Virus record (IMG/VR): IMGVR_UViG_3300037466_002408
DNA: 64,000 bases
Direction: 5' to 3' (one strand)
Source of the DNA: an uncultured virus (IMG/VR IMGVR_UViG_3300037466_002408)
Taxonomy: Duplodnaviria; Heunggongvirae; Uroviricota; Caudoviricetes
Positions 44,202-64,000 of this stretch are shown piece after piece (within the stretch, counting starts at the first letter, position 1; the number at the start of each line of letters is the position of its first letter). The notes under the pieces are model-generated. The model worked only from the letters and a program-made list of their open reading frames with translations. It had not been told where the DNA came from and ran no database searches. The translations under genes and the position numbers were made by a program.

Positions 44202-44203
44202 TT

Positions 44204-46625: not shown

Positions 46626-47271
46626 TGACTTCCTCGGCTTGTACATCAATAGTGGGGAATCTGAAATCGTCATCCTCTAAGAACTCTTCAAAGTTCTTGT
46701 ATTGCTTGCCTGAAGTCTCCTTGGCGTGATTGAGAATAAGAACCGTCAAATCGCGCTTACCAACATCCTCTTCCTTCTTATCAACAAGTTTATCAAGACG
46801 GTCAGAATGCTTGAGCAGCATATCGTTAAGAGTCGAGAGAGATAAACCGTCCAAATCGCTGTTGGCAATTTTCTTCATTAGCGCATTGTACATTTCCTCG
46901 ACAACGCGCTTCTGCTTTCGGATTCTATCGTTCTTGTCTGACACACCTTCTTTGATGGTGTACTCATTGAGAGCGCGAGCAAAGTGAGGAAGTTTCAGCC
47001 ATTCCTCAATAGTGCTTAGATTGACCATCAACCTATCAGACACTTCCTTCTGCGTGTAACCACTGGCAATAAGAAGGGCAGCATCCTTTTGCTCTGGCGA
47101 TAATTGAGCTTGAGTTTCAAGCTGAGCCTTGGCTTGAATTTGAAGGGCGAGTTTTTCAGCCTCCTTCTTCAGCTTGTTCTTCTCTTCCTCAATAATCTTT
47201 TTTCTGGTTTTTGCGTCAATATTGACTTCCTTTTCGTCCTTTTTGGGACGCTTTTTGTTGTTTTCGGCCAT
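46618..47271 (-). CDS. putative terminase small subunit
   Basis: HTH LSPEQKDAALLIASGYTQKEVS..TIEEW..F; upstream of terL. Confidence 0.65.
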   Translation of the reverse strand: MAENNKKRPKKDEKEVNIDAKTRKKIIEEEKNKLKKEAEKLALQIQAKAQLETQAQLSPEQKDAALLIASGYTQKEVSDRLMVNLSTIEEWLKLPHFARALNEYTIKEGVSDKNDRIRKQKRVVEEMYNALMKKIANSDLDGLSLSTLNDMLLKHSDRLDKLVDKKEEDVGKRDLTVLILNHAKETSGKQYKNFEEFLEDDDFRFPTIDVQAEEVNE

Positions 47272-47292
47272 AAATATCCCCTTTTTAATTAT

Positions 47293-48384: not shown

Positions 48385-48805
48385 AATTCAAATCCTGCTC
48401 ATAACCCTCAACCATATTGTAAGGGTCACTAGCATCTTGACCGTGATTCTTCACATCTTCATTATCGTAAATGATGTGTCCAACCTTGTACTCGTACTCA
48501 CGGAAATACATTTCGTGATACTCGCAATGAATTCCGCGCTCTCTTGATTCTTGTGCAGAATCATTTAGCCATGACTTGTTTTCCTCAAGCCACTTTAGAG
48601 CTTCTTCCTTCTGTTTCTTCTCTCGCGGAGTCCGAGCCTTCATTTCGTTGTATTCGTGCTTCAACTCTTCGTAGATATTCTTGCGCTTCTTGGACTGGCC
48701 CTCACGGGGCTGCTTGGTGCGAGCCCGACGACGTTCCCGCATTAGGGCGATGGTTTCTGGCGAGTGCTTACGACGCTTACGCTTTGGTTTTTCTTGGTTA
48801 TCCAT
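48356..48805 (-). CDS. hypothetical protein with NUMOD3-like basic motif
   Basis: RKHSPETIALMRE. Confidence 0.5.
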   Translation of the reverse strand: MDNQEKPKRKRRKHSPETIALMRERRRARTKQPREGQSKKRKNIYEELKHEYNEMKARTPREKKQKEEALKWLEENKSWLNDSAQESRERGIHCEYHEMYFREYEYKVGHIIYDNEDVKNHGQDASDPYNMVEGYEQDLNFGGGDFDDE

Positions 48806-48806
48806 G

Positions 48807-49826
48807 TTATGCCTCTAGAATCGCTTCTGTTAGTTTTGCGGTTAGCTCTGAATCATCATTGAGATCCTTGATTAGGGCTTCCTTACCTTGCCATTGACGC
48901 CCGTCGAACTTGTACCAGGCACCACCCTTTTCAATCACATTCTTCTCTAGTCCTTGACTGACGAGGCAGAATGCTTTGTTGAATCCAACGCCCCAATCAA
49001 GTCTGAATAAAGCTGTCTGTTGAGGGGCGGAAGTTTTATTCTTAATTGTCTTTGCGCGAATAATATGGCCGACCTTCTGACCAGCTTCCTCAACATCTTC
49101 TGCGCGGCGAATATCTAGGCGGGTAGAACAGGCGAATTTAATACCGCGACCGCCAGTGGTTGTCTCAGGATTACCATAGCCGCCAATCTTCTCGCGAAGC
49201 TGATTGATAAGAATCAAAGTACCATTCTTTTCGCCAAGCAAAGGAACAACCTTACGCATGAACTTGTTATTCATCTTGGCTGTGCCACCCATTTGTTGGT
49301 CTTCCATATCGCCTTCAACTTCAACCTCTGCGGCCATTGCAGCAACGGAGTCGATAACAACAAGTTCAATACCATCTTCAATCATCAGCAGAGCGACGTT
49401 ATAACCCTCTTCGGCAGTTTCGGGCTGGCTGATTAGAAGCTCGTCAATTTTTAGGCCAAGCTCTTGAGCATAACTAGGGCTGAAAGCGTGTTCGGCATCA
49501 ACGAGGCCAACAGTGAGGCCAGCCTGTTGAGCGGCGATCATCGTCTGGATAACAACAGTCGTTTTGCCAGTTGACTCAGGGCCGTAAATTTCATGAACAC
49601 GACCCTTGGCCCAGCCATAACCATTTGAGCCCTTGCCAAGAATCAAGTCCAATGACAAAATGCCGGAAGAAAGACGCTCAAGAGTGAGGTCATCATCCTC
49701 GTCATACATCTGCACAACAGCCTTCTTAAACTGCTTGTTGTACTTTTCCTTTAGCTCTTGTAGTTTCTGCTTGCGAGTATTCTCAACAACAGTATTTGTA
49801 TCTTCTACCTTCTTAGGTCTTGCCAT
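48807..49826 (-). CDS. recA: RecA recombinase
   Basis: EIYGPESTGKTT, VDAEH, SQPETAE, VIDSVAA, INQLREKIG, TTGG. Confidence 0.95.
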   Translation of the reverse strand: MARPKKVEDTNTVVENTRKQKLQELKEKYNKQFKKAVVQMYDEDDDLTLERLSSGILSLDLILGKGSNGYGWAKGRVHEIYGPESTGKTTVVIQTMIAAQQAGLTVGLVDAEHAFSPSYAQELGLKIDELLISQPETAEEGYNVALLMIEDGIELVVIDSVAAMAAEVEVEGDMEDQQMGGTAKMNNKFMRKVVPLLGEKNGTLILINQLREKIGGYGNPETTTGGRGIKFACSTRLDIRRAEDVEEAGQKVGHIIRAKTIKNKTSAPQQTALFRLDWGVGFNKAFCLVSQGLEKNVIEKGGAWYKFDGRQWQGKEALIKDLNDDSELTAKLTEAILEA

Positions 49827-49856
49827 ATATCCTCCAAAATTTCATCAAGTACACAC

Positions 49857-49885
49857 ATCTTAATATTGTCAAGAGTCGCGGTCAA
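49857..49885 (-). promoter_or_regulatory. sigma70-type promoter with GACTCT box (recA)
   Basis: TTGACC-gcgactcttgacaatat-TAAGAT. Confidence 0.7.
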
Positions 49886-49902
49886 ATAAAAAAGCAGGTG
49901 GC

Positions 49903-50400
49903 TTACGCCACCCGCTCATATTTGTAGAATCTAACACCTTCATCCCTTGATTGTTCAACTAATTTAAAGTCTTTGTACAACCCTCCTGGCATCAAGCAAT
50001 CGCCGTCTGAAAAATCCTCAATTACAGAAACATACATTTCTTGAATATGCGGCAGAGCCTCTAAGATTGTCTTTGGTCCGCCAATAATCCATAAATCCAT
50101 TTGCTTGTTTCTTGGCTCATGTTCTTTATAACCGATAATTGCGTTTTCAACAGAATGAACAAGAATTAAATTAGGATTCAGCCTTTGGTTATATCCAAAA
50201 CTAACAACCCAATTGTCTCTATTGGGCAAAACCTTTTCATCAATTAGCTTCCAGGTGTTATAGCCCATAACAATGATGTGTCCGGTGGTCAATTCCTTGA
50301 ATCGCTTCATGTCAGCGGGGCACTTCCAGGGAAGTCCGTTCGGCGCTTTAGAGTCACCCATCACGCCTTTTTTGTTGATGGCAAAAATTGCTTTAATCAT
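49903..50400 (-). CDS. folA: dihydrofolate reductase
   Basis: [30 protein letters not shown]. Confidence 0.92.
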
Positions 50401-51239
50401 ACCGCTACCTTACCAGCCAGAGGACCGTGAGACTCATAACCAACCAGTTCGAAATCGCCAGGAGTAAACGAGAAGATATCAATTACCTCGGGATTAATCT
50501 TTAGCTTTGGCAAAGGCAAAGGTTCTCGACTCAACTGAGTTTGAATCTGCTCAATGTGATTGGTATAAATGTGAGCATCGCCAATCGTATGAATAAATTC
50601 GTGAGCCTTCAATCCGGTTACTTGGGCAACCATGTGAAGTAGCAAACTGTAAGAAGCAATATTGTAAGGCACTCCAAGAAAGAGATCGGCAGACCTTTGA
50701 TAAAGTTGTAGAGAGAGTTTATCATCGTTGCTCACATAAAACTGGAAGAGCGTGTGGCATGGGGGAAGTGCCATATCCTTCATTTGGCCTGGGTGCCAAG
50801 CAGAAACAATAAGGCGTCGAGAGGAAGGATTGGTTTTGAGTTCGTTGATCAGCCACTCAATCTGGTCAACACCTTCAATGTAACCACGGGCATAATATTT
50901 GGTATCAGGATTGAATTTGTACTGGCCGAATTTTCGCCACTGATGACCGTAGATGGGGCCAAGTTCGCCGTTTTCATCAGCCCAAGCATTCCAGATGTTA
51001 ACGCCAGCGTCCTTCAAAGTGTTGTTGTTGGTATCGCCTGCCAAAAACCAAAGAAGCTCTCGGACAATACCGTTCCAGCGAACATCGGACATTTTCTTGG
51101 TGGTGACGAGAGGGAAGCCATCAGCCATCTTGTAACGGACTTGAGCGCCAAACAAAGAGATTGTGCCGACGCCAGTACGGTCCTCGCGCCTTTCGCCGTT
51201 CTCCAAAACCTCGCGATACAAATCAAGTAGCTGCTTCAT
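50397..51239 (-). CDS. thyA: thymidylate synthase
   Basis: [39 protein letters not shown]. Confidence 0.96.
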
Positions 51240-51252
51240 CTTCGTCCTTATT

Positions 51253-51438
51253 TTAACAATTACAATCGCCGTGGCAGGGGTCTAAACACTTCTCTTCCTC
51301 GGTGACTTCGGCGCCCATCTTTTCGAGCAATTCAACCAACCAATCTTCGCGAAGAGAGTGACCCTGCTCTTTCAATTCGCCGTTTACCCAAAGCTCGCAC
51401 CATTCTCCCCAAGGGTCGTTAACAATGTGAATCTTCAT
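51253..51438 (-). CDS. hypothetical protein
   Basis: GGAGG RBS before MKIHIV. Confidence 0.55.
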
Positions 51439-51460
51439 AAATCCTCCAAGAGATACGAGA

Positions 51461-51543
51461 AGAGTACCACCTTGAAGAGTCGCGAGCAAGTTTAACTTTG
51501 TCCATTTTGGGTAATGGACCGGGACTCTCGGCTCAGTTAAGAT
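51461..51543. promoter_or_regulatory. divergent pair of GACTCT-box promoters
   Basis: Minus: TTGCTC-gcgactcttcaaggtgg-TACTCT (51461-51489); plus: TGGACC-gggactctcggctcagt-TAAGAT (51515-51543). Confidence 0.7.
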
Positions 51544-51700
51544 CTATATACCAAGAGACAATACATGATCTATATACATGATCTAGACATGAATTAAATC
51601 ATGAAATCAAATCAGACATGATAATTATTCATGATCAAATCAAATATTCATGACATAAATCCAAATAGAAATATCTGATCAGACTACTATTAATAAATGG
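51541..51700. repeat. GATC/CATG short-repeat array related to 7106-7197
   Basis: 5 GATC and about 7 CATG; shares ATCAAATCAGACAT (inverted) and CATGATCTAG with the first tract. Confidence 0.6.
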
Positions 51701-51716
51701 CGAGCGAGGGAAGAAA

Positions 51717-52226
51717 TTGTCAGAAAACAATGTGCTAGTTCTAAATAACAGTTTTTTGCCTTTGGGTAATTGCAGTATTGAAAAAGCCATTTGTCTTTTG
51801 GTAATTGGCAAGGCAAATTCTGTAAAGGATTCAGATAAATCTGTCCGATCAGTTTCTACAGAAATCCCCATTCCTCTCGTTATTTATTTACCAAATGTCA
51901 ATTATGTAAGGGCAAAAAATCCGCCCCCGCCAACCAGAAGAAATGTCTTCTCTCGCGATAAACATACCTGCGTTTACTGTGGTAGTCAAAACAAAAACAA
52001 TCTTACCCTCGACCATGTTATCCCCAAAAACCGATGGAAAGAGATTAATCGGAAGAGTCCCTTGCATTATGGAATTAATTCCTGGCAGAATCTAACAACA
52101 GCATGTCGTGATTGCAATGCTTATAAAAGCGACCATCTGTTAAGTGAGCTTGGTTGGCCCGAAATCCGCCCCAAAGCACCACTTACTTCCCTCGATATCC
52201 AATGGGACCTTATTATGGAGTCATAA
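51717..52226 (+). CDS. HNH endonuclease
   Basis: VLVLN, RRNVFSRDKHTCVYCG, TLDHVIP, WQNLTTACRDCN. Confidence 0.88.
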   Translation: MSENNVLVLNNSFLPLGNCSIEKAICLLVIGKANSVKDSDKSVRSVSTEIPIPLVIYLPNVNYVRAKNPPPPTRRNVFSRDKHTCVYCGSQNKNNLTLDHVIPKNRWKEINRKSPLHYGINSWQNLTTACRDCNAYKSDHLLSELGWPEIRPKAPLTSLDIQWDLIMES

Positions 52227-52695
52227 TGATTGTATATGCTGTAGAAATAAACGGAATCGTTGTGTCTTTACACAAAAATAGAATCAAAGCTACTGAGAGA
52301 GTGATTGATCTTGTTAATAATTGGGGGCGCCAAGCGAAAGTCGCCGAAATGAAAGTAGAGGATTAATATGCAAAAGTATCAACTAGCTAAGGACGTGCAA
52401 GTTCAGGTCTTGGACCGAATTGCCACCTTCATTGAGAATATCGCCGAGGAATACATTCTAGAAGATGTAGACTTCCTCGTTAAGTGTAAGCCCGATGAGA
52501 TTTTAGTAGAGGTGTACAATGGTTAGTTTTTGTGGTTGGTTTATTCTTCTATTTTTCGGACTAAGTGTTTTCTTTAACTTTATTGATATGGTTTCAAATA
52601 AAGATGAAGAAATGCGTTATATGGCTCTAGGCAGAATTATCATGCTTTCTCCTGTCCTGTGCTATACGTACCTCACAATGTTTGGTGGACAATAA

Positions 52696-52914
52696 ATGAC
52701 AATTGAACCCAAACACATCTTTCTAACAATGATTGGCGTGGAGGGTGATGAATCCGTCAGACATACAATTGTTGTTAATTCTCTGGACGAAGCGGAAATT
52801 ACCGCCTTCTTCATCGAAGAGGTTTTCGGCGGAAAAGCAATCGTATCCCTCGGCTCAGCCTTAGAAACTGCCGAAGTCATGTACATCACCCCCGCCTGTA
52901 AAGAACTAAAGTAA
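52696..52914 (+). CDS. hypothetical protein
   Basis: 72 aa ORF in the plus-strand run. Confidence 0.5.
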   Translation: MTIEPKHIFLTMIGVEGDESVRHTIVVNSLDEAEITAFFIEEVFGGKAIVSLGSALETAEVMYITPACKELK

Positions 52915-52978
52915 GCTAAAACGCCAACGCGGGACTCTTGCGTTGTGCTAAAGTTATAAGGCATACGAGAGGTACGAA

Positions 52979-54010
52979 ATGACCACTAAATTAGATATTT
53001 ACAACTTTTGTAAGCGCAAGCGAACCGATGGTTATGAATGGAATCAAATCCATGCTTTCGCCAAGAAGGATAACCTGATTGGCAAGAATACCAGCATTGA
53101 TGACTTGATTAAGGTCTATCAAAATGTTGCTGGCGAACTTGCCGCTTTTGGTAAGCTTGAGCAGATGCAGTTTGATGAGCATCTACAGCAATTCTACAAC
53201 TGGCTTGGCAAGTCCCGTAATATCGAGAAGTCAAAATTTGCCAAGCAGAAGACCGAGAGCGAAAGCACTACTGTTGTAATTTCAGACGTTCATTTTCCTT
53301 TTGCCGACGAAGAGAAGCTACGCCGTATTCATGACGAGTGGGTTGGCAAGGCCGATTCAATGGTCATTCTTGGCGACTTACTTAACGGCAGTTCTCTGTC
53401 AGACCACGACGCTCATGAGATTGAGGATTTTCGCCTACAACTAGGTCAGGCACGAACCTGGATTGAGTTATTGGCTTCAAGCTTTGACCTTACTGTTGTT
53501 AAGGACAATCACGTTAATTCGCGTTTGGAGCGCCGTAAGGCCCGTGGTTTTTCGCCCGACACACAGTTCCTCGTCCAAGATCCTTATCGTCTACTTCTAG
53601 CTGGCGTAGATAACGCAAGATATTCAGCAGACACCCTAAAGACTCAATACAATGAGGAATTTGGTTGGCTCTATATCCTTGGTGATGATTGCGTTATGGC
53701 GCACGGCGAGGTAAGCGGTCAAGATATGGCTCCTGCTCGTAAGATTCAAAAGTTTGCTAACGAGTGGAAGCGCCACCTTGGAATGAAGGAAGTTCGTTGC
53801 GTTATTGAAGCCCATGTTCACAAGGTCGGTATGATTCACGATGATGATTGTGTTATTGGATATTCTGGTTGCCTTGTTACTCTTGACGGAGTGAAGTATT
53901 CAATGGGTGCCCGTGCCCAAGGTGGACCGCCTAAGAATGGTTATGCTGTTGTTCATCAGGTGAATGGTCGAACAGATTTGGAAAAGACTAATTTTTATAG
54001 GTTGGTGTAA
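52979..54010 (+). CDS. calcineurin-like metallophosphoesterase
   Basis: SDVH, LGD, DNH, HG, AHVH. Confidence 0.8.
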   Translation: MTTKLDIYNFCKRKRTDGYEWNQIHAFAKKDNLIGKNTSIDDLIKVYQNVAGELAAFGKLEQMQFDEHLQQFYNWLGKSRNIEKSKFAKQKTESESTTVVISDVHFPFADEEKLRRIHDEWVGKADSMVILGDLLNGSSLSDHDAHEIEDFRLQLGQARTWIELLASSFDLTVVKDNHVNSRLERRKARGFSPDTQFLVQDPYRLLLAGVDNARYSADTLKTQYNEEFGWLYILGDDCVMAHGEVSGQDMAPARKIQKFANEWKRHLGMKEVRCVIEAHVHKVGMIHDDDCVIGYSGCLVTLDGVKYSMGARAQGGPPKNGYAVVHQVNGRTDLEKTNFYRLV

Positions 54011-54150
54011 TGATGTTCTTGTTTACTTGTTTAGTTTCTGGTATTGGTGGGTGCTTGTTAACACACGACGACAATACTCTTAGAGCGTTTGGTGTGTATT
54101 TAATTGCTTACGCTATTACAGCAAATGTATTAAATAGTAAGAAGAGTTAA

Positions 54151-54393
54151 ATGTATAATTATGCAATTGCGTTTGAAGATGGAACACCACACGCATTAAT
54201 TCAATCACAAGAGCCTATTGAAAGACTAGCTCCAATTATGGTTGAGCAGGGCAAATATATGGTTGTTTCAAAGATTCCATATGTAAGCCTTGATGCGCCA
54301 GAAGTAAGCTGGATAATTGTTCTTCAGGACATGAATGAGTGGATTGCGGAGCAAGAAGAGTGTCGGAAAAATATGCAAATGGACCAATGGTAA
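54151..54393 (+). CDS. hypothetical protein
   Basis: 80 aa ORF. Confidence 0.45.
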   Translation: MYNYAIAFEDGTPHALIQSQEPIERLAPIMVEQGKYMVVSKIPYVSLDAPEVSWIIVLQDMNEWIAEQEECRKNMQMDQW

Positions 54394-54508
54394 TTAAGGG
54401 AACTGTCGCCCTTAGTCACCAATATGAACAATTCGGAAGAAAAGTCCGAGTGATTGCTTTTGCACCAGTTGACGCTAAACACGAACAACTTATTTTGGAG
54501 TACGTAGA

Positions 54509-55309
54509 TTGAATCTTGGTGATATTTTCAGCCAACAAGCTGACAAAGAAGCTGCGCCCAAGTTTGACGAGAATTGGCTTTTGCCGATTTTGACCGAGCA
54601 AATGGAGGCCGATAGTCGCAAGCAGGTACAAGAGACTAAATGGCGAGCTTCCTCAATTGGTGGGTGCCCGCGTTACCTTATGTACCAGCGCAAGGGCTAT
54701 GACGACAACAAGGATGCCAAGAGTCTGATCACTCTTTTCATTGGTACTCAGGTTCACGAATTCCTTCAGGGTTTTTTGCAGAAAACCGGCCTACTAAAGT
54801 CACTTGAAGAAAAAGTACGAGTAATTGACATTAACGATGCAGAGGGTTCATATGATGGTCTTCTCTCGCATCCTGATGGCGAAGAACTTCTTGAAATCAA
54901 GACGATGAATGTTGAGGCTTATCAGCGTCAGCTTCTCTATCGTAAGATTTACCCCAAGTACATTTTCCAAGCCAATTTCTACATGTTGGCTTTGGGAGTC
55001 AAACGTGCGCGATTTGTTTTTGTTAACAAAAATGGGTTGTTCACTCAAGAGTTTGAAAAAGAGCATAAAGGCGAAGGCCTAAATCCACTTTGGTTTGAGC
55101 AAATTCTATATGCTGACCCTAAAATCCAACAAGCTATCCGTGATCGTGTTATCGAACTCGATTCACATCTTGTTAATGAAACAATGCCGGAACGCAAGAC
55201 CGTTTCACAGTGTAGCTATTGCCCTGTGGCCGATCGTTGTAAGGCGGAATCTAAGCTAGAAAAAGCCGCTAAAAAAGCTGCCGATAAAACCAGCAAGTTA
55301 AATGATTGA
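54509..55309 (+). CDS. Cas4-like PD-(D/E)XK exonuclease
   Basis: SSIGGCPR, GTQVH, GSYDG, LEIKT, QANFY, CSYC..C. Confidence 0.82.
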   Translation: MNLGDIFSQQADKEAAPKFDENWLLPILTEQMEADSRKQVQETKWRASSIGGCPRYLMYQRKGYDDNKDAKSLITLFIGTQVHEFLQGFLQKTGLLKSLEEKVRVIDINDAEGSYDGLLSHPDGEELLEIKTMNVEAYQRQLLYRKIYPKYIFQANFYMLALGVKRARFVFVNKNGLFTQEFEKEHKGEGLNPLWFEQILYADPKIQQAIRDRVIELDSHLVNETMPERKTVSQCSYCPVADRCKAESKLEKAAKKAADKTSKLND

Positions 55310-55359
55310 TGGGTCGGTTGACCCACAGGTAACGTTTCTAGCCACGTAAAGGAAACCAC

Positions 55360-56100
55360 ATGGGCCGTTCAAGAAAAAAGTCATCCCGCGATCACTTTGA
55401 AGAGGATTACTGGGAGAATTTGCCTGCCGCAAAAACCGGCTTCTCTAACATCAGACTCATTGAAAAATTCAATCCTAGAACACAGGCACAACAAAAAGCC
55501 AAACAAGAAGTTAAAGAAAACGTCCTAACATTCCTAAAGGGCGAGGCAGGTACAGGTAAGTCAATCGTTGCGGTCGCTCAGGCCGTGGAGGACTTGAAAA
55601 ACGGCAAGGTAGAGAAGATTATTCTCAGTCGCCCAATGGTCGAAGCAGGCAAACCAATGGGTCATCTTCCCGGTACGGCAGATGACAAGCAGAAGCCTTA
55701 TCTTTTTCCTCTATTGGACAACCTTGAAATCTTCCTTGGCAAAGAGCAGTTAGACGAATTGATGGCCGAAGGCATCATTAAATTCGAAGCCATCAACTTT
55801 ATGCGCGGTAGAACCTTCCATGATGCGTTCGTCATTATTGATGAGGCCCAAAACGCCGATAAGAAGGAAATGTACCTCGCTCTAACTCGTATTGGTGAAA
55901 ACTCAAAGTATGTCGTTACCTATGACGACAAACAGTTAGATATTCCCGCAGCCAAGAGCTGCATTTCAGACATTGAAGAATTCAAGGGTCGCAACAAAAT
56001 CGGCTTCCACGAATTCACGCATCACGATATCGTGCGTTCTGAAATGTGTGCAATGGTTGTTCAGGTGTACAACGAAATTCAGGAGAGACAGAATGCCTAA
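55360..56100 (+). CDS. phoH: PhoH family ATPase
   Basis: GEAGTGKS, GHLPG, FMRGRTF, IIDEAQN, LTRIG. Confidence 0.92.
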   Translation: MGRSRKKSSRDHFEEDYWENLPAAKTGFSNIRLIEKFNPRTQAQQKAKQEVKENVLTFLKGEAGTGKSIVAVAQAVEDLKNGKVEKIILSRPMVEAGKPMGHLPGTADDKQKPYLFPLLDNLEIFLGKEQLDELMAEGIIKFEAINFMRGRTFHDAFVIIDEAQNADKKEMYLALTRIGENSKYVVTYDDKQLDIPAAKSCISDIEEFKGRNKIGFHEFTHHDIVRSEMCAMVVQVYNEIQERQNA

Positions 56101-56338
56101 GCGCGTAACAGAGCAGTATTTCTATAGCGATACTTTTGTTGATGTTGTTGATGGTCGCTATACTGTAGTCACCAAGGAAATGACCAAGCAGCAACTTCGC
56201 CATCTGCGAATGGTGATTAACGAGATTCTTGACGAGGATGTGGTTGTAGTTGAGGCTATTAATTCCGGTGCAGGTGGAAGTGTAACCACTAGGCCTCAAT
56301 TGCCTTCGCCTAAGCCTAAAATCATGGAAATGGGTTAA
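56093..56338 (+). CDS. hypothetical protein
   Basis: AGGAG RBS before MPKRV. Confidence 0.5.
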   Translation: MPKRVTEQYFYSDTFVDVVDGRYTVVTKEMTKQQLRHLRMVINEILDEDVVVVEAINSGAGGSVTTRPQLPSPKPKIMEMG

Positions 56339-56835
56339 TGAAAGTCATTATAACTGTTGACCCTGGGCTCCTTGCATGGGCCTGGGGTATCTACACCGAG
56401 GATGGCAAATACTTAAAATCGGCCACAGTAACATACAAAGGAAAACAATCTCAAGAGCATAGACTTAATGAAATCTATAATGAATTATGTGACGTAGTTG
56501 AGTCTCTTGATGACAAATATGAAATCGAACAGATTGTTGTTGAAAAGCAGTTTGTTGAGATTATGAGTCAGATTGTAGGCGTCATCAGAGCGTTTGCTGG
56601 TTGGGCCGAAACCCGCACTACACTGTTTGTCCCCGCTTCCTGGCGAAAGCTGGCAATCGGTAAAGGAAACGCCACAGAAGACCAAGTTAAAGAAAAGGTT
56701 CTCTCGGTATTCCCTGAACTGGCAGAAGCAAGCGAACACGAAATCGACACTGGCGCACTTTACTTAGCTTACCGAAAGAGTAAAGAGAATGAAACGACAC
56801 CTAAAAAAACTCCAAAAGGAAAAAAGCTACGCTGA
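56338..56835 (+). CDS. RuvC-like Holliday junction resolvase
   Basis: VDPG, RLNEIY, VVEKQF, GKGNA, HEIDT. Confidence 0.82.
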   Translation: MKVIITVDPGLLAWAWGIYTEDGKYLKSATVTYKGKQSQEHRLNEIYNELCDVVESLDDKYEIEQIVVEKQFVEIMSQIVGVIRAFAGWAETRTTLFVPASWRKLAIGKGNATEDQVKEKVLSVFPELAEASEHEIDTGALYLAYRKSKENETTPKKTPKGKKLR

Positions 56836-57154
56836 GATTACATTAGAGGACATGACCACCATCTATGGTTATGTTGTTGATGTTAGCGGCGAAACTTTCA
56901 CCGTGTATGGCCCCGACGAGATTCCTCAAATGTCGGAGCATGATGGTGGCAGCGTCATGACGGAGTTCATTCATAGGTGCGATTTGGTTATGAACATCAC
57001 GACCGACATTTCTCACCGTGTTCCGAGAGGCGTCATGGATGCTTTTGAGTACCAGCGTGATCGCTGGATGGCGGCTCAGAAATCGCCCAAAGTGACTCCA
57101 AAACGAACCATCAAAAAGAAAACAAAGAGTCCCTTGCCCTCGTCCCAAACCTAA
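56789..57154 (+). CDS. hypothetical protein
   Basis: 121 aa ORF followed by a terminator-like hairpin. Confidence 0.5.
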   Translation: MKRHLKKLQKEKSYAEITLEDMTTIYGYVVDVSGETFTVYGPDEIPQMSEHDGGSVMTEFIHRCDLVMNITTDISHRVPRGVMDAFEYQRDRWMAAQKSPKVTPKRTIKKKTKSPLPSSQT

Positions 57155-57488
57155 GATAAGATGGAGCCATCAAGTTGATTGATGGTTCTATTTTTTTAGG
57201 AGAGCAAATGGCTAGCCTTGTGTGTGCCTTTTTGATGTTCTTATTCCCATTTGTTGTTATGGAAATTTCCGGCGCAAACAGCACTGTAATTGAGCCTATT
57301 GAGTATTAGGAGAATTAAATGTACGACCTAAAGATGTACAAGGACCAAGAGCCTAAGATGGGTTCAAAGTTCCGCAATGTGAATGGTGATGTTGTTGGTC
57401 ACATTCAACCCGTCAGCATTCCCGGCAGCGTTCAGAAGTGGGGCGTTGTTCCCGCCAACGAAAAGAAGAAGAAGTCGGAGAGTAAGTA

Positions 57489-57722
57489 ATGAAGGAAATT
57501 CTATCTCTAGCCGCCGCAGCCTTTATGGTTATTTTCTATATTGGTCTTGCACTTGGCTCAATTTATCTTTGGCTAACCGGCCTGGTTGATGCCTTTCACA
57601 CCGCTTTGGCGATGGGTATTATTGCCTTTGTAATTCCGCCAGTGGCAACACTCAACGGCCTTCTCCTATTCTTCAATTATCATCTGGCGCATCAAGTGGC
57701 TCTCGCGCTTCATATGATTTAA
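57489..57722 (+). CDS. small membrane protein
   Basis: Hydrophobic throughout. Confidence 0.5.
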   Translation: MKEILSLAAAAFMVIFYIGLALGSIYLWLTGLVDAFHTALAMGIIAFVIPPVATLNGLLLFFNYHLAHQVALALHMI

Positions 57723-57731
57723 TGGGTTTCA

Positions 57732-57815
57732 GCTAGGTTGCCAGAGTGGTCGATTGGGATGGTTTTGTAATCCATTAGCGAAAGCTCACCGCAGGTTCAA
57801 ATCCTGTGCCTAGCT
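57732..57815 (+). tRNA. tRNA-Thr(UGU) with long variable arm (alternative reading Tyr GUA)
   Basis: Acceptor GCTAGGT/GCCTAGC; loop TT-TGT-AA; V-arm AGC-GAAA-GCT; T-arm GCAGG-TTCAAAT-CCTGT; no CCA. Confidence 0.75.
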
Positions 57816-57878
57816 CTTGCCAATTAGCTTTATCGAAGAATGTAAAGTTATTCATGAAATAATTTTCGATTCGATAAG

Positions 57879-58478
57879 GTGGCAAAAATGAACAGAAGTG
57901 AAGCTGGAAAATTAGGGAGTTTAAAAGCGCGAGAAACACACAACAGACAAAAACAAGAGCGCATAAACACATATAACCTAAATCCTACAAGATGTAAATT
58001 TTGCAATACAGCATTTGAGTACAGTAAACGTACCAATAAATTTTGCGGTCATTCTTGTGCGGCAGCTTATAACAATAAAGGCGTTAGGCGTCATGGTAAA
58101 TCTCAAAAAAGCGAATGTGTTAACTGCGGCAAAGAAATTACGAATGAAAAATACTGTAATATAAATTGCCAAAAACACCACCAAATGATGGAGAAGATTG
58201 AAGGCAATACGGCATCATCAAGGACAGTAAAGAAATATTTAATTTTTAAATATGGAGATAAATGCCAAAGATGTGGTTGGTGCGAGATTCATCCCATTAC
58301 TGGAAACGTGCCAATTGAACTAGAGCATATTGATGGAAATCACCGCAACAATAATTTAAACAATGTCATTTTACTTTGTCCGAATTGTCACAGTTTGACG
58401 CCAACGTATAAAGCCTTAAACAAAGGCAACGGCAGACACTCTCGCAGGCAAAGGTATAAAGAAGGTAAAAGTTTTTAA
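57879..58478 (+). CDS. HNH endonuclease inserted in tRNA cluster
   Basis: CQRCG, ELEHIDGNHRNNNLNNVILLCPNCHSLTPT. Confidence 0.88.
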   Translation: MAKMNRSEAGKLGSLKARETHNRQKQERINTYNLNPTRCKFCNTAFEYSKRTNKFCGHSCAAAYNNKGVRRHGKSQKSECVNCGKEITNEKYCNINCQKHHQMMEKIEGNTASSRTVKKYLIFKYGDKCQRCGWCEIHPITGNVPIELEHIDGNHRNNNLNNVILLCPNCHSLTPTYKALNKGNGRHSRRQRYKEGKSF

Positions 58479-58484
58479 GTACGT

Positions 58485-58559
58485 GCCAGAGTAGCTTAAT
58501 TGGATAGAGCAGCAGGCTCCAAACCTGCTAGGTGGGGGTTCAATTCCTCTCTCTGTGCG
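58485..58559 (+). tRNA. tRNA-Trp(CCA)
   Basis: GCAGG-CTCCAAA-CCTGC anticodon arm; T-arm GGGGG-TTCAATT-CCTCT; irregular acceptor end. Confidence 0.8.
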
Positions 58560-58563
58560 CCTT

Positions 58564-58640
58564 GTGTTGGTAGCTTAATCGGCAAAGCGAATGGGCAGCT
58601 AGCAGCCTTTTAGTTGTGGGTTCAAGTCCCACTCAACACA
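58564..58640 (+). ncRNA. tRNA-like RNA with non-canonical anticodon arm
   Basis: Acceptor GTGTTGG/TCAACAC, D-arm and T-arm intact; middle AATGGGC-AGCTAGCA-GCCTTTT. Confidence 0.7.
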
Positions 58641-58643
58641 TAT

Positions 58644-58716
58644 GTCCTCGTAGCTCAAATGGTAGAGCTTCAGACTTCTAATCTGATGGTTGCAGGTTCA
58701 AGTCCTGCCGGGGATG
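58644..58716 (+). tRNA. tRNA-Arg(UCU)
   Basis: TCAGA-CTTCTAA-TCTGA; canonical cloverleaf; no CCA. Confidence 0.9.
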
Positions 58717-58841
58717 CTGGGTATTACTTTCGGGGGAAAAGAACCCGAACCATGCAAAATGGTTGTTTCTTGAATTAGGCAAAGTTTGTCGAAAAAAGAA
58801 AATGAGAGATATTTGTGAAAATATCAATACCTGACAATTAT

Positions 58842-58994
58842 GGTAAGGTAGCCTTAAGTGGCGAAGGGTGGCGGCAGCTACTATGTAACCACATCGGAAG
58901 TAGGGAGCTTGGGCGATTCTAGACTAACCCACGGCCCGAAGAGGTATCTCGGTAATCCCGAGAAATAGTGCAAGTTCGAACCTTGCCCTTACCA
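58842..58994 (+). ncRNA. 153-nt tRNA-like RNA with a large insertion replacing the anticodon arm
   Basis: Acceptor GGTAAGG/CCTTACC+A; TA then D-like arm; T-arm GCAAG-TTCGAAC-CTTGC; about 100 nt in between. Confidence 0.7.
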
Positions 58995-58997
58995 CTA

Positions 58998-59498
58998 ATG
59001 GAAAAGGCAATGCAGTATAAAACAAGAAATCCAAGATTCTATTATGTGTCTGACGAATACGCCGTCGGTTTGCTTGTCGAATTTTATGTTCGTCACGGGC
59101 GATTTCCTGCTCTAAGTTTCAAGGATGGCTGTAAATGGCGAGAAGAGGATCGGCAACTTTGTATTGAGTTGAAAATCCCAAGTATTGTTAACTACATCAA
59201 ATATCTTGGCTCATACAATACAGCCTGTAAGATGGCGGCAGACAAACTTGGCATTGAGTTTTCGCCGCATAAAAGAGGCACAAAACAAGGTGATACATTT
59301 TACTCAGAAGAATATCTAATTGAATTGTGGAGATTTATCAAACAAGAAACTGGGGATTTCCCTCGTTTAAGCGGTGGCAAAAAAGGCGAAGGTAGCCGCA
59401 AATGGCATTTCAGATTCAGTAAATATCCTTTGCCTAATCCAAACACTATCTACAAACGTTACGGAAGTTACACGAAATTTCTTGAGAGGGTTGAATGA
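58998..59498 (+). CDS. homing-endonuclease-associated repeat protein
   Basis: Two repeats: F...GRFP...IPS..YIKYLGSY and F...GDFP...LPN..IYKRYGSY. Confidence 0.65.
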   Translation: MEKAMQYKTRNPRFYYVSDEYAVGLLVEFYVRHGRFPALSFKDGCKWREEDRQLCIELKIPSIVNYIKYLGSYNTACKMAADKLGIEFSPHKRGTKQGDTFYSEEYLIELWRFIKQETGDFPRLSGGKKGEGSRKWHFRFSKYPLPNPNTIYKRYGSYTKFLERVE

Positions 59499-59674
59499 GT
59501 GGCTAATTTTTTACTGTTTGCGTATGATTCTTGTTATCCGATTGGTGGAATTCATGATCTTCGCAGTGTTCATAATTCATATTCTGCCGCTGTTGAGGTA
59601 GCGAAAACCCTTACTAACGATTGGGTTGAAATTGTGGATACAGCAACGCTTGAAACTGTTTGGAGTAATGGTTA

Positions 59675-60088
59675 ATGAAAGATATTTTAATCAAACAACT
59701 CGTTAAGAATTATAAGCTTGGTGGTCGTCGGTATACAGATGTGGGTGATTTACGCCAAATCGGCAAGACGACAGCACTCATTGATATTGCTTCTCAACTC
59801 AAGCAAATCAGCAACATGAGTGCAGCGTCCCTGCTTCTTAATCTCACTGAAAATACGCCAGTTGTTGTTGTTCACAATGAGCAGACCAGGGCCAGGCTTC
59901 GCCGGGAAAACCCGCTAATTGAATTTGCAACACTTGTTACGCTAGGTAATTTTATTGGTTGCCCTAATCTCATTCTGCTTGTTGACGAGGGCGTTCCCAA
60001 GAATGAATTAGATACCAATATTGTAGCATTCAATTTAAGTCCACGCTTTGTTTTTGGCTGGAAGGCTTCACACGAGAGGGATAAGTAA
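59675..60088 (+). CDS. small P-loop-like protein
   Basis: RQIGKTT and LLVDE. Confidence 0.5.
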   Translation: MKDILIKQLVKNYKLGGRRYTDVGDLRQIGKTTALIDIASQLKQISNMSAASLLLNLTENTPVVVVHNEQTRARLRRENPLIEFATLVTLGNFIGCPNLILLVDEGVPKNELDTNIVAFNLSPRFVFGWKASHERDK

Positions 60089-60459
60089 TGGCAGTTATTG
60101 CTGAGGATATGTTAACCAAGTTTCCCTTGGACAAGACTAATATTTCAGAATTCACCACAAAGGTTGTTGGGCTAACCTTCCGAGATCCAAAGCATGTTGA
60201 TGCTGTTGAGACTGGCGATGTGATGTACATTCAGGCGGAAATCGGCAACGAACACGACGCCACAGCCTGTATGGTAATTCACAATGAGACAGGCAATCAT
60301 GTTGGTTATCTCTCCAAGGATTTCTCAAAGATTGTTTGGAACAACATCATGACCAGAGGCGACCTTTATATCGCCAAGGCAGAAGTAACTGGCGGCACCG
60401 AGGACAAGCAAAAGGGAATTAACTTGCTCGTCAAACACCTACGACTAAAGGATAGTTAA
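60088..60459 (+). CDS. HIRAN domain protein
   Basis: KVVGLTFR, E.GNEHDATACMV, HVGYL. Confidence 0.8.
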   Translation: MAVIAEDMLTKFPLDKTNISEFTTKVVGLTFRDPKHVDAVETGDVMYIQAEIGNEHDATACMVIHNETGNHVGYLSKDFSKIVWNNIMTRGDLYIAKAEVTGGTEDKQKGINLLVKHLRLKDS

Positions 60460-60786
60460 ATGGTAGACCCTAATGAAATCGTAACAATTCCTGTTGATGG
60501 GTTTTACCAAGATGTATCGCATAAACAATTCCTAGCAGATGAGTTGGATTTTGATGGCACTTTTGACAATTACCTTGAGTACAGTCATTTTATGGTCAGC
60601 TTGGGACGAGCTTACCCAGAAGGAATCCCCTTTGAATACTTCTACCAAAAGTTGAATCGGTATCGCGGCGATAAAATCGTACAAAGCTTGCTCGACAAAG
60701 GTTTGATTGAAGCCAAGAGTGTTAACGAAGATGGCGACACTGTTTTCGGCCTAACAGACTTCGGAAAACTCCACGTCGGTAGCTAA
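60460..60786 (+). CDS. hypothetical protein
   Basis: 108 aa; wHTH-like C-terminus LLDKGLIE..FGLTDFG. Confidence 0.5.
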   Translation: MVDPNEIVTIPVDGFYQDVSHKQFLADELDFDGTFDNYLEYSHFMVSLGRAYPEGIPFEYFYQKLNRYRGDKIVQSLLDKGLIEAKSVNEDGDTVFGLTDFGKLHVGS

Positions 60787-60859
60787 CTTAAAATACCTAA
60801 TACGCACTCATTTCGGTGAGTGCTTTTCTTTCCCCGTAATTCCTGTTAGAGAGGCTAAA

Positions 60860-62821
60860 ATGGCTAGGGACTTCAAACTTTCAGATGTATTTATCGCCGG
60901 TTATGTCGCCAAGAAGGCTCCGTTTGGTTTCAACGGCCTTGGTGAGCTAACTTATTTCCGCACCTATTCCCGTAAGAAGGATGACGACACTAACGAGCAA
61001 TGGTATGAAACCGTTCGGCGTGTTGTCGAAGGTTGTTATTCAATGCAGAAGCGTTGGATTGTCGAGAATGGTCTTGGTTGGGACCAGCGCAAGGCTCAAA
61101 AGTCAGCGCAAGAAATGTACGACCGAATCTTCAATATGAAGTTTCTTCCTCCTGGTCGCGGCCTGTGGGCTATGGGCACGGCCGTTGTTGAGGAAAAGGG
61201 TCTTTATGCTGCCCTTAACAACTGTGCTTTCGTCAGCACGAAGAACATCAAGGATGATGGTGCCAAACCTTTCACCTTCCTTATGGATATGTCCATGCTA
61301 GGTGTTGGCGTTGGTTTTGATACCAAGGGTGCTGGCAAGATTGTTGTGCAGGCTCCTACTGGAACTCATGAATTTGAGATTCCCGACACCCGAGAGGGTT
61401 GGGTTGAGGCGACTGGCCTTCTAATTGAGGCGTATCTTTTCGGCAAATCTAAGCCGGAAATGAATTATGACCTTATTCGTCTAGAGGGTGAGCCTATCAA
61501 GGGCTTTGGTGGTGTCTCGTCTGGTCCTGAGCCTCTAAAGGAGCTACACCGCAAGATTGAAGAAATCTTTGAGGCGCAAATCGGTCAACCTATTTCCGTA
61601 ACCACAATTGTCGATATTATGAATCTTATTGGCAAGGCTGTTGTTGCTGGTAATGTTCGCCGTACTGCTGAAATTGTTTTCGGTGATCCTAATAGCGACG
61701 AGTATCTTGATCTAAAGAACTACAAGGTCAACCCTCAGCGAGAGGAATTCGGTTGGACCTCTAACAACTCCGTGTATGCAAATCTTGGCATGGATTACAC
61801 CAAGATTGCTGAGCGTATCAAGATTAATGGTGAGCCTGGTTTGGCTTGGCTTCAGAACATGAAGTCTAACAGCCGCATGGGTGACGAAGCTGATTTCAAG
61901 GACGTTCGTGTTGAGGGCGGAAACCCTTGTCTTGAGCAGAGTCTAGAGCCCTATGAGCTTTGCTGCTTGGTTGAGACTTTCCCTGACAACCATGAGAATT
62001 TTGAGGACTACCAACGCACCCTCAAGTTTGCGTACCTCTATGCTAAGACGGTGACTTTGGGCAAGACTCACTGGCCCGAGACTAACCGTGTTATGCTGCG
62101 AAATCGCCGCATTGGAACCTCTCAGTCTGGTATTGCCCAATTCATTGCTAAGCGTGGCATTAGCGAATACATTCATTGGTGTGAGGACGGTTACAACACT
62201 ATTCAGTATTACGACAAGGTGTATTCTGATTGGTTTGCTGTTCCTCTTTCAATCAAAACAACCTCAATCAAGCCTTCTGGCACCGTTAGCCTTCTAGCTG
62301 GCGCTACCCCTGGTATGCATTTCCCTGAGTCGGATTTCTACATTCGCCGCATTCGCCTTGCCAAGAATTCGCCGCTACTAAAGCCCCTGCTTGACGCTGG
62401 TTATCATGTTGAGCCCGCATTCGGTTCAGAGGATTCAACTGTTGTTGTTGAGATTCCTGTTGCTATTGGTGACGGTGTTCGTACAGTTGCTCAAGTCTCA
62501 ATGTGGGAGCAATTGTCTCTCGCTGCATTGATTCAAAAGCATTGGGCTGACAATCAGGTTTCTTGCACTGTGACCTTTGACCCCAAGACCGAAGGTGATC
62601 AGATTGCTCACGCGCTGAACTACTTCCAGTACCAGCTAAAGGGTGTCAGTTTCCTCCCTCGTCTAGAGAAGGGTGCTTATCGTCAGATGCCTTACGAGGC
62701 CATTGATGATGCTACCTACTACGCTATGATGATGAAGCTGAAGCCGCTGGACTTCCAGGCTGTGATGGGTCAAGAGAACGAGCCCGAACGCGGTTGCAAC
62801 AACGACTCTTGCGCTCTATAG
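60860..62821 (+). CDS. nrdJ: class II (adenosylcobalamin-dependent) monomeric ribonucleotide reductase
   Basis: RTYSR, LPPGRGLW, LNNC, GNVRRTAE, NPCLEQ, ELCCL, TSIKPSGTVS, C-terminal CNNDSC. Confidence 0.93.
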   Translation: MARDFKLSDVFIAGYVAKKAPFGFNGLGELTYFRTYSRKKDDDTNEQWYETVRRVVEGCYSMQKRWIVENGLGWDQRKAQKSAQEMYDRIFNMKFLPPGRGLWAMGTAVVEEKGLYAALNNCAFVSTKNIKDDGAKPFTFLMDMSMLGVGVGFDTKGAGKIVVQAPTGTHEFEIPDTREGWVEATGLLIEAYLFGKSKPEMNYDLIRLEGEPIKGFGGVSSGPEPLKELHRKIEEIFEAQIGQPISVTTIVDIMNLIGKAVVAGNVRRTAEIVFGDPNSDEYLDLKNYKVNPQREEFGWTSNNSVYANLGMDYTKIAERIKINGEPGLAWLQNMKSNSRMGDEADFKDVRVEGGNPCLEQSLEPYELCCLVETFPDNHENFEDYQRTLKFAYLYAKTVTLGKTHWPETNRVMLRNRRIGTSQSGIAQFIAKRGISEYIHWCEDGYNTIQYYDKVYSDWFAVPLSIKTTSIKPSGTVSLLAGATPGMHFPESDFYIRRIRLAKNSPLLKPLLDAGYHVEPAFGSEDSTVVVEIPVAIGDGVRTVAQVSMWEQLSLAALIQKHWADNQVSCTVTFDPKTEGDQIAHALNYFQYQLKGVSFLPRLEKGAYRQMPYEAIDDATYYAMMMKLKPLDFQAVMGQENEPERGCNNDSCAL

Positions 62822-62828
62822 GTGAAAT

Positions 62829-63101
62829 ATGAAGTTAGTTGATTTTTATGCAACTTGGTGCCCGTATTGTATGGAGTTGATGCCAGAGATTGATGCTCTG
62901 GCTCACGCCAACCCGCGCAAGGTTGAAGTTCAAAAGATTAACGTTGGTAGTAGAGAAACTGCCAAGGCTTATAAGCAAGTTATGAATTTGAATTGTCTTC
63001 CAACTGTCATCCTTTACGACGAAGACGACGAAGAGATTGACCGCTGGGATGCCGATATGGAAATGTCGTTCCAAGCTTTCATTGACGGATACGTAAAGTA
63101 G
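62829..63101 (+). CDS. thioredoxin
   Basis: LVDFYATWCPYC, LPT. Confidence 0.85.
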   Translation: MKLVDFYATWCPYCMELMPEIDALAHANPRKVEVQKINVGSRETAKAYKQVMNLNCLPTVILYDEDDEEIDRWDADMEMSFQAFIDGYVK

Positions 63102-63106
63102 ACACT

Positions 63107-63132
63107 GAGCCCCTTCGGGGGCTCTTTTTTTT
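63107..63132 (+). terminator. intrinsic terminator
   Basis: GAGCCCC-TTCG-GGGGCTC followed by a T run. Confidence 0.85.
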
Positions 63133-63167
63133 GCCCCAAAACGTTACAAAGCGTTACAAACTCTCGC

Positions 63168-63196
63168 TTGGCCGGGACTCTTCGTTTGGCTACTAT
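63168..63196 (+). promoter_or_regulatory. sigma70-type promoter with GACTCT box
   Basis: TTGGCC-gggactcttcgtttggc-TACTAT; tandem CGTTACAAA repeats upstream. Confidence 0.7.
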
Positions 63197-63218
63197 AGAT
63201 ACAGAAAGAGAGGGCGAA

Positions 63219-63401
63219 ATGCTTACGTTTCTGACGGTCATGGGTATTGGCTTGGTTGTTTTTGCTTTAGCTGTTCTATTTGGTTTTTTGGTAGAAAAAA
63301 CTAACGGATTTATTTTATTTACTCTAATTGTGCTTATGGCTATCTTTGCATTTGGTATTGCCGGATACTCTCTTGTGTTCGGTCATGCGCCTCAATTTTA
63401 G
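63219..63401 (+). CDS. small two-TM membrane protein
   Basis: GAGGG RBS; two hydrophobic segments. Confidence 0.55.
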   Translation: MLTFLTVMGIGLVVFALAVLFGFLVEKTNGFILFTLIVLMAIFAFGIAGYSLVFGHAPQF

Positions 63402-63409
63402 GAGAGAAG

Positions 63410-63571
63410 ATGTTTAAAATCGGTGATTACGTTTATATCACTACCGACAACAAAAATGGTCGAGTGAGTGGTATTTCCGCCAACTTTAAAACTGGCGAAA
63501 CCAATTACGAAGTTAATATTGGCGAAGGTACGTTTTTGTATTCAGAGAAGGAATTGAAGAGTGTCGTTTGA
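63410..63571 (+). CDS. small SH3/KOW-like hypothetical protein (not in ORF track)
   Basis: Hand translation MFKIGDYVYITTDNKNGRVSGI...YSEKELKSVV; AGGAG RBS. Confidence 0.55.
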   Translation: MFKIGDYVYITTDNKNGRVSGISANFKTGETNYEVNIGEGTFLYSEKELKSVV

Positions 63572-64000
63572 AGTTGGCAATAACGTTCGTCTTTATAGCG
63601 TGGAATTTCCAGAACTAAATATGGTTGATGGTGTGGTCAAAGAAGTGGTGGATAACGATGCCTCTGGTTGGTCAAACCCTTATCTAGTTCATGATCACGA
63701 CGGTAATTATCTTGGTTATTTTGAATATTGGGATATGACTGAATCGCCGGAGCTAACCGTCGAGCTAGTCCGCGAAAATGCCAAGGTGCCAACTTACGGT
63801 GACGGCTATGCTGCCGGAATGGATATTTACGCCACCGAGTCTTTCACCATTCCCCCTCGTTCCAAGGTGAACGTCCCGAGTGGTATCAAGTGTGTAATTC
63901 CCAATGGTCACTATCTAATCATTCAGTCTCGTTCTGGTACTGCCTGGAAGAATGCAATCGAGGCGAGCAATGCTGGTGTTATCGACCAGAATTACCGCAA
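63561..64000 (+). CDS. dut: trimeric dUTPase (truncated by window end)
   Basis: Hand translation shows AAGMD, SRSG and GVIDQNYR motifs. Confidence 0.88.
   Translation, partial: MSFEVGNNVRLYSVEFPELNMVDGVVKEVVDNDASGWSNPYLVHDHDGNYLGYFEYWDMTESPELTVELVRENAKVPTYGDGYAAGMDIYATESFTIPPRSKVNVPSGIKCVIPNGHYLIIQSRSGTAWKNAIEASNAGVIDQNYR

Follow-up and report, generated by a model that had tools for sequence, protein, structure and literature searches.

The window, i.e. the whole stretch of 64,000 nucleotides that was analysed, comes from a myovirus-type phage far from any isolate (terminase less than 30% identical) and encodes T4-like replication and nucleotide genes together with an RNA ligase. It also encodes an amidase endolysin, an enzyme directed at peptidoglycan, which points to a bacterial host. 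The structural genes include one for a 1150-aa protein with collagen triple-helix repeats (11537–14989, + strand). The tRNA region is arranged in the order 85-nt tRNA called Thr(UGU), HNH endonuclease gene, tRNA-Trp, a 77-nt tRNA, tRNA-Arg(UCU), a spacer, the element analyzed here and an ORF, the element being located on the same strand as the tRNA cluster and at its end. The features of this region that are needed below are the following:

57732–57816, + strand: 85-nt tRNA called Thr(UGU), its D arm being of type II and its variable arm a stem-loop
58564–58640, + strand: 77-nt tRNA, found by Rfam and missed by default ARAGORN
58644–58717, + strand: tRNA-Arg(UCU), the last ordinary tRNA upstream of the element
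58718–58841, + strand: 124-nt spacer from tRNA-Arg(UCU) to the element, in the place of rnaD in T4
58842–58994, + strand: tRNA-shaped element of 153 nt, at the end of the tRNA gene cluster of this soil phage
58998–59498, + strand: downstream ORF of 166 aa, with homing-endonuclease-associated DNA-binding repeats and no nuclease domain

Two tRNA genes of the cluster are themselves odd. The tRNA called Thr(UGU) shows a U·U mismatch next to the loop, and a similar 85-nt 'tRNA-Thr', 79.5% identical to it, is present in Aeromonas phage PX29. The 77-nt tRNA has an 11-nt anticodon loop, GCAGCUAGCAG, with CUA at the loop centre, and is read by ARAGORN with introns allowed as Ala(agc) carrying a 4-nt intron. 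Short words that these neighbouring tRNAs have in common with the element (GTAATCC, GGCAGCTA) were discarded as lying within chance expectation by estimate, and so were a V-arm-like CGGCCCGAAGAGG and a repeat of AGGUA at 58846 and 58942. Long stem-loop variable arms were also observed in tRNA-Ile(UAU) genes of 95–97 nt on cyanophage-like IMG/VR contigs (L019–L023 and L026; e.g. L019:9385–9480). The fold of the spacer preceding the element consists of four hairpins enclosed by a stem of 7 bp (z −3.31, with none of 200 shuffles as good), and this spacer may be a second small RNA. A sigma-70-like sequence, TTGTGA-17-AATTAT, ending at 58841 was rejected as a promoter of the element, because the start would fall inside the acceptor stem and the score is 8/12. 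On the downstream side, the ATG of the 166-aa ORF is found 3 nt past the discriminator of the element and is not preceded by a Shine-Dalgarno sequence, whereas the neighbouring genes have GGAG-type sites; the search for relatives of its protein among 5.8 billion clusters returned only the protein itself.

The element can be divided into the following parts, numbered in brackets, where needed, from its first nucleotide:

58842–58848, + strand: 5' strand of the acceptor stem, GGTAAGG, with 7/7 Watson-Crick pairs to CCTTACC (58987–58993)
58849–58850, + strand: U8 and A9 (T8-A9 in the DNA), directly after the acceptor 5' strand
58851–58868, + strand: D-like arm (positions 10–27), from sequence reading and constrained folding
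58870–58946, + strand: 77-nt insert (positions 29–105) between the D arm and the anticodon-like arm, from a deletion scan
58883–58894, + strand: small hairpin AUGU-AACC-ACAU (positions 42–53) inside the insert
58895–58942, + strand: candidate long arm with a loop-E (bulged-G) module, from a local match to RF01739 and a shuffle test
58910–58931, + strand: distal hairpin UGGG...CCCA within the candidate long arm
58947–58963, + strand: anticodon-like arm UCUCG-GUAAUCC-CGAGA, 17 nt
58964–58969, + strand: variable loop AAUAGU, 6 nt
58970–58986, + strand: canonical T arm GCAAG-UUCGAAC-CUUGC, with G53-C61
58987–58994, + strand: 3' strand of the acceptor stem, CCTTACC, followed by the discriminator A (58994)

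The tRNA-type hallmarks of an acceptor stem of 7 bp, a T stem of 5 bp, a T loop of the form UUCRANY and a G53-C61 pair are all found in the element. The original prediction of a tRNA-shaped RNA of 153 nt is thereby confirmed in its parts (acceptor stem, TA at 8–9, D-like arm, T arm, discriminator A), each of which is located at the coordinates given above. The D-like arm is made of three standard pairs (C11-G26, C12-G25 and U13-A24) and a loop, UAAGUGGCGA, that contains GG; the stem includes a G10·G27 mismatch, and position 14 is U, not A. The discriminator is followed by CTA, and thus CCA is not encoded. We defined a strict frame by an acceptor stem of seven Watson-Crick pairs, U8 and a T arm that has G53..C61 and a TTCRA loop, at a spacing of 95–260 nt. 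It occurs once in the window and in none of 200 mononucleotide shuffles (64-kb window, both strands). A looser frame, scanned in the window and in 43 other phage loci, yielded nine matches, among which only the element at 58842–58994 is long, has a canonical T arm and is not an ordinary tRNA with a chance upstream partner. The tRNA frame of the element is real and not a chance arrangement. Most of a searched stretch of 541 nt is present in five sequencing runs from soil and rhizosphere, among which no RNA run was found, and three of the five (X1, X4 and X5) span the element or most of it with identical letters, which shows that the element is not an assembly accident. A contig from run X6 covers only the first 19 nt of the element, and no sequence variants were seen across the run contigs covering it (X1, X4, X5, and the first 19 nt in X6).

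We analyzed the internal organization by a deletion scan in which every possible internal segment was removed by script, giving 1642 variants that were each run through default ARAGORN. A tRNA was called in 186 of the 1642, and 159 of these 186 calls take the hairpin 58947–58963 as the anticodon arm, read as 'Ile(aat)', the remaining ones being Pro(cgg) (21), Thr(ggt) (3), Phe(gaa) (2) and Arg(tcg) (1). As this 17-nt hairpin is followed by six unpaired bases and then by the T stem, it occupies the place of the anticodon arm. The presence of an anticodon-like arm at the canonical place, together with the deletion scan, identifies the extra material as 77 nt at the D/anticodon junction; the element minus the insert amounts to 153 − 77 = 76 nt. 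Thus, the proposed domain of about 100 nt 'in place of the anticodon arm' has to be redrawn, since the arm is present at 58947–58963 and 77 nt are inserted beside it instead.

An ordinary decoding tRNA has a 7-nt anticodon loop with a pyrimidine at position 32, U33 and a purine at position 37. The anticodon-like loop of the element, GUAAUCC, departs from this rule by a purine at 32 (G32) and a pyrimidine at 37 (C37), and a stem of 6 bp with a 5-nt loop is possible through a G32-C38 pair; on these three grounds, the element is not a normal ribosomal adaptor. Default ARAGORN is silent on it, and the Rfam tRNA model RF00005 does not call it at the gathering score: in an Rfam scan of 58832–59004 the best RF00005 score is 16.9 bits against a cut-off of 29 and concerns only the 3' 57 nt (58938–58994). 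Comparing the element with ordinary tRNAs of RF00005, it becomes apparent that the acceptor stem, U8, the GG-containing D-like arm, a 17-nt arm at the anticodon place, the T arm and the discriminator A are common to both, whereas the 77-nt insert at position 26/27, G32 and C37 are not. The helices of the frame are perfect (7/7, 5/5 and 6/6), non-canonical features being found in the loop and in one pair of the D stem, which suggests that shape has been kept and decoding has not. The element may well be a tRNA-derived gene that no longer decodes.

The folding energies give a different picture for the insert than for a stable domain. The whole element folds at −52.3 kcal/mol (z −1.42), a value equalled by 16 of 200 shuffles, and the insert folded by itself reaches −17.4 as compared with a shuffle mean of −19.4 (300 shuffles, z +0.61), so that the earlier description of the middle part as 'structured' finds no energetic support. 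Three hairpins had been drawn in it; all of their pairs are standard, but with a total of −32.6 they do not form the minimum-energy fold. No second copy of the insert is found elsewhere in the window. The Rfam scan of 58832–59004 also gave a match of 12.1 bits (E 4.5, gathering cut-off 35) to the glutamine-I (glnA) riboswitch, RF01739, in which the local alignment covers model positions 9–44 of 53, with CGGAAGUAGG and CCGAAG matched exactly, and leaves positions 1–8 and 45–53 unmatched, P1 lying outside the match. According to passages of PMC5393176, the succession of a hairpin, CGGAAGUAGG, a helix and CCGAAG constitutes the loop-E portion of this riboswitch, and passages of PMC6698751 place the glutamine contacts in P1 (the C1:G59 pair) and at G22. 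The likeness thus concerns this succession, with the loop-E module next to a junction; on the other hand, the element lacks a matched P1 with its ligand-contact pair and has 28 extra nt in P3, and its setting is a tRNA frame in a soil phage instead of the 5' UTR of a cyanobacterial nitrogen gene. Membership of RF01739 was rejected on the score (12.1 bits vs. 35), the unmatched ligand-contacting P1 and the weak matches that the same model gives in 9 of 14 control genomes. In the element, the loop-E module would consist of AGUA (58899–58902) opposite GAA (58938–58940), beside GGG/CCC (58903–58905 and 58935–58937). With the middle 100 nt shuffled 20000 times, such a module arises in 1.6% of the shuffles, and in 0.13% if the A..G flank is required as well, in a test that is post hoc, having been made after the RF01739 match, and not significant on its own. 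The insert may form a three-way junction with a loop-E module, and this post hoc module, a lead and not a proof, is the only basis on which a structured domain can be claimed.

No known Rfam family is matched by the element, in agreement with the original prediction, which had also set aside tmRNA and group I introns; neither finds a supporting match in Rfam or ARAGORN. Characteristic of tmRNA are the G3-U70 alanine identity pair, a tag reading frame and pseudoknots. Position 3-70 of the element is U-A, as had been anticipated from the absence of a G3-U70 pair, and tmRNA was rejected on this pair, on the empty output of the ARAGORN tmRNA mode (-m) and for want of an Rfam match. With its 153 nt, the element is much smaller than tmRNAs usually are (374 positions in the Rfam tmRNA model); it resembles tmRNA in placing a tRNA-like acceptor/T-arm domain around a large non-tRNA domain and differs from it in having a D arm and an anticodon-like arm. 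A full tmRNA was observed on another phage contig (L016:8192–8652, + strand; Rfam 143.9 bits), near tRNA genes. A group I intron was rejected on the length of the insert (77 nt), on its site at the D/anticodon junction and for want of a match to the intron and ribozyme families of Rfam at E≤10, and a CRISPR-repeat reading of the element has no Rfam support. The YrlA family (RF02553) was likewise rejected, its weak Rfam match in the window falling on two adjacent ordinary tRNAs (58595–58696) and not on the element. Both YrlA and the element join a tRNA-like module to another RNA domain; unlike the element, YrlA is circularly permuted, with its ends placed in the Ro-binding stem. No member of the Ro/TROVE family was found among the window ORFs scanned.

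The search for relatives points to a phage lineage that is nearly absent from the collections searched. Using blastn against 50,697 phage records, nothing was obtained at E≤0.01 and only a 19-nt chance match at E≤10, and exact and degenerate pattern scans for the element in IMG/VR, JGI metagenomes and GTDB genomes gave 0 matches each. A pattern comprising the acceptor and the start of the D arm with a tRNA-sized gap recovered five loci in GTDB genomes, namely two ordinary tRNA-Phe(GAA) genes of candidate-phyla bacteria and three chance matches; tRNA-Phe genes with the same acceptor stem and D-stem start say little about the element. In IMG/VR, relatives were found neither for the ORF 59675–60088 nor for the RuvC-like gene. 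The ribonucleotide reductase has relatives at 43 loci, which have that gene alone in common with the window, and in their DNA only chance matches of 12–15 nt to the element (E 0.06 or more) were obtained, the tRNA scan of these loci revealing nothing of its kind. The TerL search yielded one identical fragment and one relative at 59% identity, whose 16.6-kb contig contains no tRNA. The nearest record, G001, does not cover positions 44001–64000 of the window, which include the element. As it stands, the element is a single lineage-specific instance. In the literature, the search for a described class of such phage RNAs led only to mentions of rnaC and rnaD of T4.

The roles of these two T4 RNAs are called unknown in passages of PMC3014915 and PMC12685909. 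The T4 cluster contains, in order, segB (a homing endonuclease gene), tRNA-Arg, rnaD (119 nt) and rnaC (139 nt), and the layout of the present phage is an HNH gene, three tRNAs ending with tRNA-Arg(UCU), the folded 124-nt spacer, the 153-nt element and the homing-endonuclease-repeat ORF. T4 rnaC (L044:2909–3047, − strand) was aligned with four relatives from other Tevenvirinae genera (alignment A2, L046–L049). The fold common to the five sequences comprises an acceptor-type stem with tandem U·U, a long hairpin substituting for the D arm, an anticodon-like arm whose loop is non-decoding, a variable loop of 5–6 nt and a canonical T arm, and compensatory changes are seen in 19 of its 46 pairs. 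T4 rnaC is thus a tRNA frame with about 60 extra nt and a non-decoding loop, i.e. the same idea as the element, built differently. The comparison with rnaC made in the original prediction proves to be apt, since rnaC, located after tRNA-Arg, is tRNA-like and combines a canonical T arm and an anticodon-like arm with an additional long hairpin. In rnaC and its four relatives, the long hairpin carries at its apex an invariant UUGACG, the exact reverse complement of the CGUCAA loop, likewise invariant, of the anticodon-like arm; the surrounding stems vary, and a loop-loop contact is possible. Both the UUGACG apex and the CGUCAA loop are absent from the element, where only a 4-nt complement, between the loop 58954–58957 and 58915–58918, is found, at chance level.

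The likeness between rnaC and the element extends to their location (both follow tRNA-Arg and close a phage tRNA cluster that includes a homing endonuclease gene), to their similar size and to several traits of the molecule: a T arm with a UUCGAAY loop, a non-decoding anticodon-like loop, a 5–6-nt variable loop, an acceptor-type closing stem, about 60–77 extra nt 5' of the anticodon-like arm, and no encoded CCA. Like rnaC, the element is encoded within a phage cluster on the strand of the tRNAs, and its 3' half is tRNA-like. They differ in that the long hairpin of rnaC replaces the D arm and its acceptor contains tandem U·U, whereas the element retains a D arm, has a perfect acceptor and carries its insert after the D arm. 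Moreover, the extra hairpin of rnaC is very stable (z −4.57) and supported by covariation, in contrast to the insert of the element (z +0.61). A covariance model built from the five rnaC sequences (R1) gave no match in the window at E≤10, and for this reason the element is regarded as a variant of the rnaC kind and not as a member of the family. In Aeromonas phage PX29 (L045), which has 20 tRNAs, four T arms were found on the tRNA strand outside the tRNAs called by ARAGORN (3134–3150, 6430–6446, 8721–8737 and 9398–9414). The segment 6353–6456 of that phage, about 104 nt long, is tRNA-like and has an acceptor stem with 6/7 pairs, and 9342–9426 looks like a tRNA with A at position 33.

The explanation that we prefer, with a probability of roughly one half, is that the element is a tRNA-derived RNA that does not decode, is released by tRNA-processing enzymes and represents a variant of the T4 rnaC kind. 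It would be transcribed together with the tRNA cluster, RNase P would cut at G58842 and the 3' enzyme after A58994, and CCA would then be added. This processing is predicted because the acceptor/T-arm half, which is intact, and the D/T elbow are what these enzymes recognise. It would yield a stable tRNA-mimicking RNA of about 156 nt, a tRNA look-alike whose insert protrudes at the hinge joining the D arm to the anticodon-like arm. Going by T4 rnaC, its most probable use would be to engage a tRNA-binding protein, e.g. a host tRNA-targeting or tRNA-processing factor, and this engagement of a host factor is a guess; none of the findings bears directly on a decoy or a synthetase ligand, the phage-encoded RNA ligase being the only context. 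Several observations count against this explanation: no homologue was found, neither the element nor its insert folds better than shuffles, the rnaC model has no match, the D stem has a G·G mismatch and position 14 is U. The perfect frame fits a recently disrupted tRNA gene as well.

A decaying tRNA gene is, indeed, a serious rival, although we consider it less likely. A dead or dying gene would have received the 77-nt insertion at the D/anticodon junction, e.g. during DNA repair after cuts by the neighbouring homing endonucleases, its loop would have drifted later, and it would have no function of its own. The HNH gene and the homing-endonuclease-repeat ORF on either side agree with such a history, as do the two other odd tRNA genes of the cluster, the non-canonical loop with the D-stem mismatch, the absence of an energetic signature of structure in the insert and the single occurrence, with no relatives in the collections searched. 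On the other hand, the arms of the acceptor, T and anticodon-like type have kept every one of their 18 stem pairs in spite of the altered loop, and neutral decay should strike stems too. The loop-E module of the insert, being rare among shuffles, and T4 rnaC, which shows that such RNAs can be conserved and structured, also speak against decay.

The close spacing between the discriminator and the ATG of the 166-aa ORF raises the question of a processing signal, in which the frame would attract RNase P as well as the 3' enzyme, whose cut would free a near-leaderless mRNA with only CUA before the AUG. The lack of a Shine-Dalgarno sequence at this ATG, next to genes with GGAG-type sites, agrees with it. 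Such a signal has no need for a D arm, an anticodon-like arm or a 77-nt insert, however, tight packing alone explains the spacing, and the ORF, an orphan relic of a homing endonuclease, may in any case be expressed at a low level; we regard this reading as quite improbable.

More improbable still is an intron-bearing tRNA, from which the insert would be removed and the exons joined, perhaps via the phage RNA ligase, to give Ile(AAU) of 76 nt or Thr(GGU). The length obtained by subtracting the insert and the presence of the ligase are compatible with it, and Thr(ggt) with an intron of 72 nt is called by ARAGORN once introns are permitted and the threshold is lowered. Yet this Thr model has a C·C mismatch in the anticodon stem and C at position 33 and breaks the perfect 6-bp hairpin, and a 5-mer with 4/5 complementary bases within 75 nt is expected by chance, whereas the Ile(AAU) product carries G32 and C37. 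The insert has no Rfam intron or ribozyme match, and known self-splicing introns are far longer than 72–77 nt. To our knowledge, protein-based tRNA splicing does not occur in bacteria, and the host is bacterial; no bulge-helix-bulge complementarity was seen by eye at the insert junctions.

The least probable reading, a very slight one, is that of a tRNA frame with an aptamer-like domain, in which a glutamine-I-like three-way junction (P1' 38–41/101–105, P2' 42–53, CGGAAGUA, P3' 62–96, GAAG) would bind a small molecule or a loop-E-binding protein: the exact motifs of the local RF01739 match, its hairpin in the right place, the rarity of the loop-E module among shuffles and a drawable P1-like helix of 4 bp with one bulge stand beside a score at which several such matches are expected by chance (E 4.5), the weak matches of this model in control genomes, an unmatched P1, the helix with the glutamine contacts in passages of PMC6698751, a 28-nt insertion that P3 would contain, and canonical pairs of the fold that amount to −28.8 to −33.6 kcal/mol vs. 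a minimum of −52.3.

Coming back to the preferred explanation of a processed, non-decoding RNA of the rnaC kind, one may think of a broader, uncatalogued class of phage RNAs in which the upper half of a tRNA is a cassette, such that host tRNA enzymes would excise any inserted module, cap it with CCA and render it stable. In the present element, this module would correspond to a three-way junction with a loop E that binds a host factor or a metabolite, and T4 rnaC would be the first-seen example; we think it doubtful that so broad a class exists. If it does, the module could, e.g., soak up a tRNA-targeting defence enzyme. For fifty years, phage tRNA clusters have been known to contain small stable RNAs to which no function is assigned, namely T4 rnaC and rnaD. 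Phage tRNAs are now understood as counter-measures to tRNA-cutting host enzymes (PMC10264068, PMC11464382 and PMC11555353). At present, the value of the element is that of a catalogue entry and of a candidate for a test of expression and processing. A complete non-decoding tRNA frame with an extra domain would help to test whether such RNAs act as decoys or as delivery frames.
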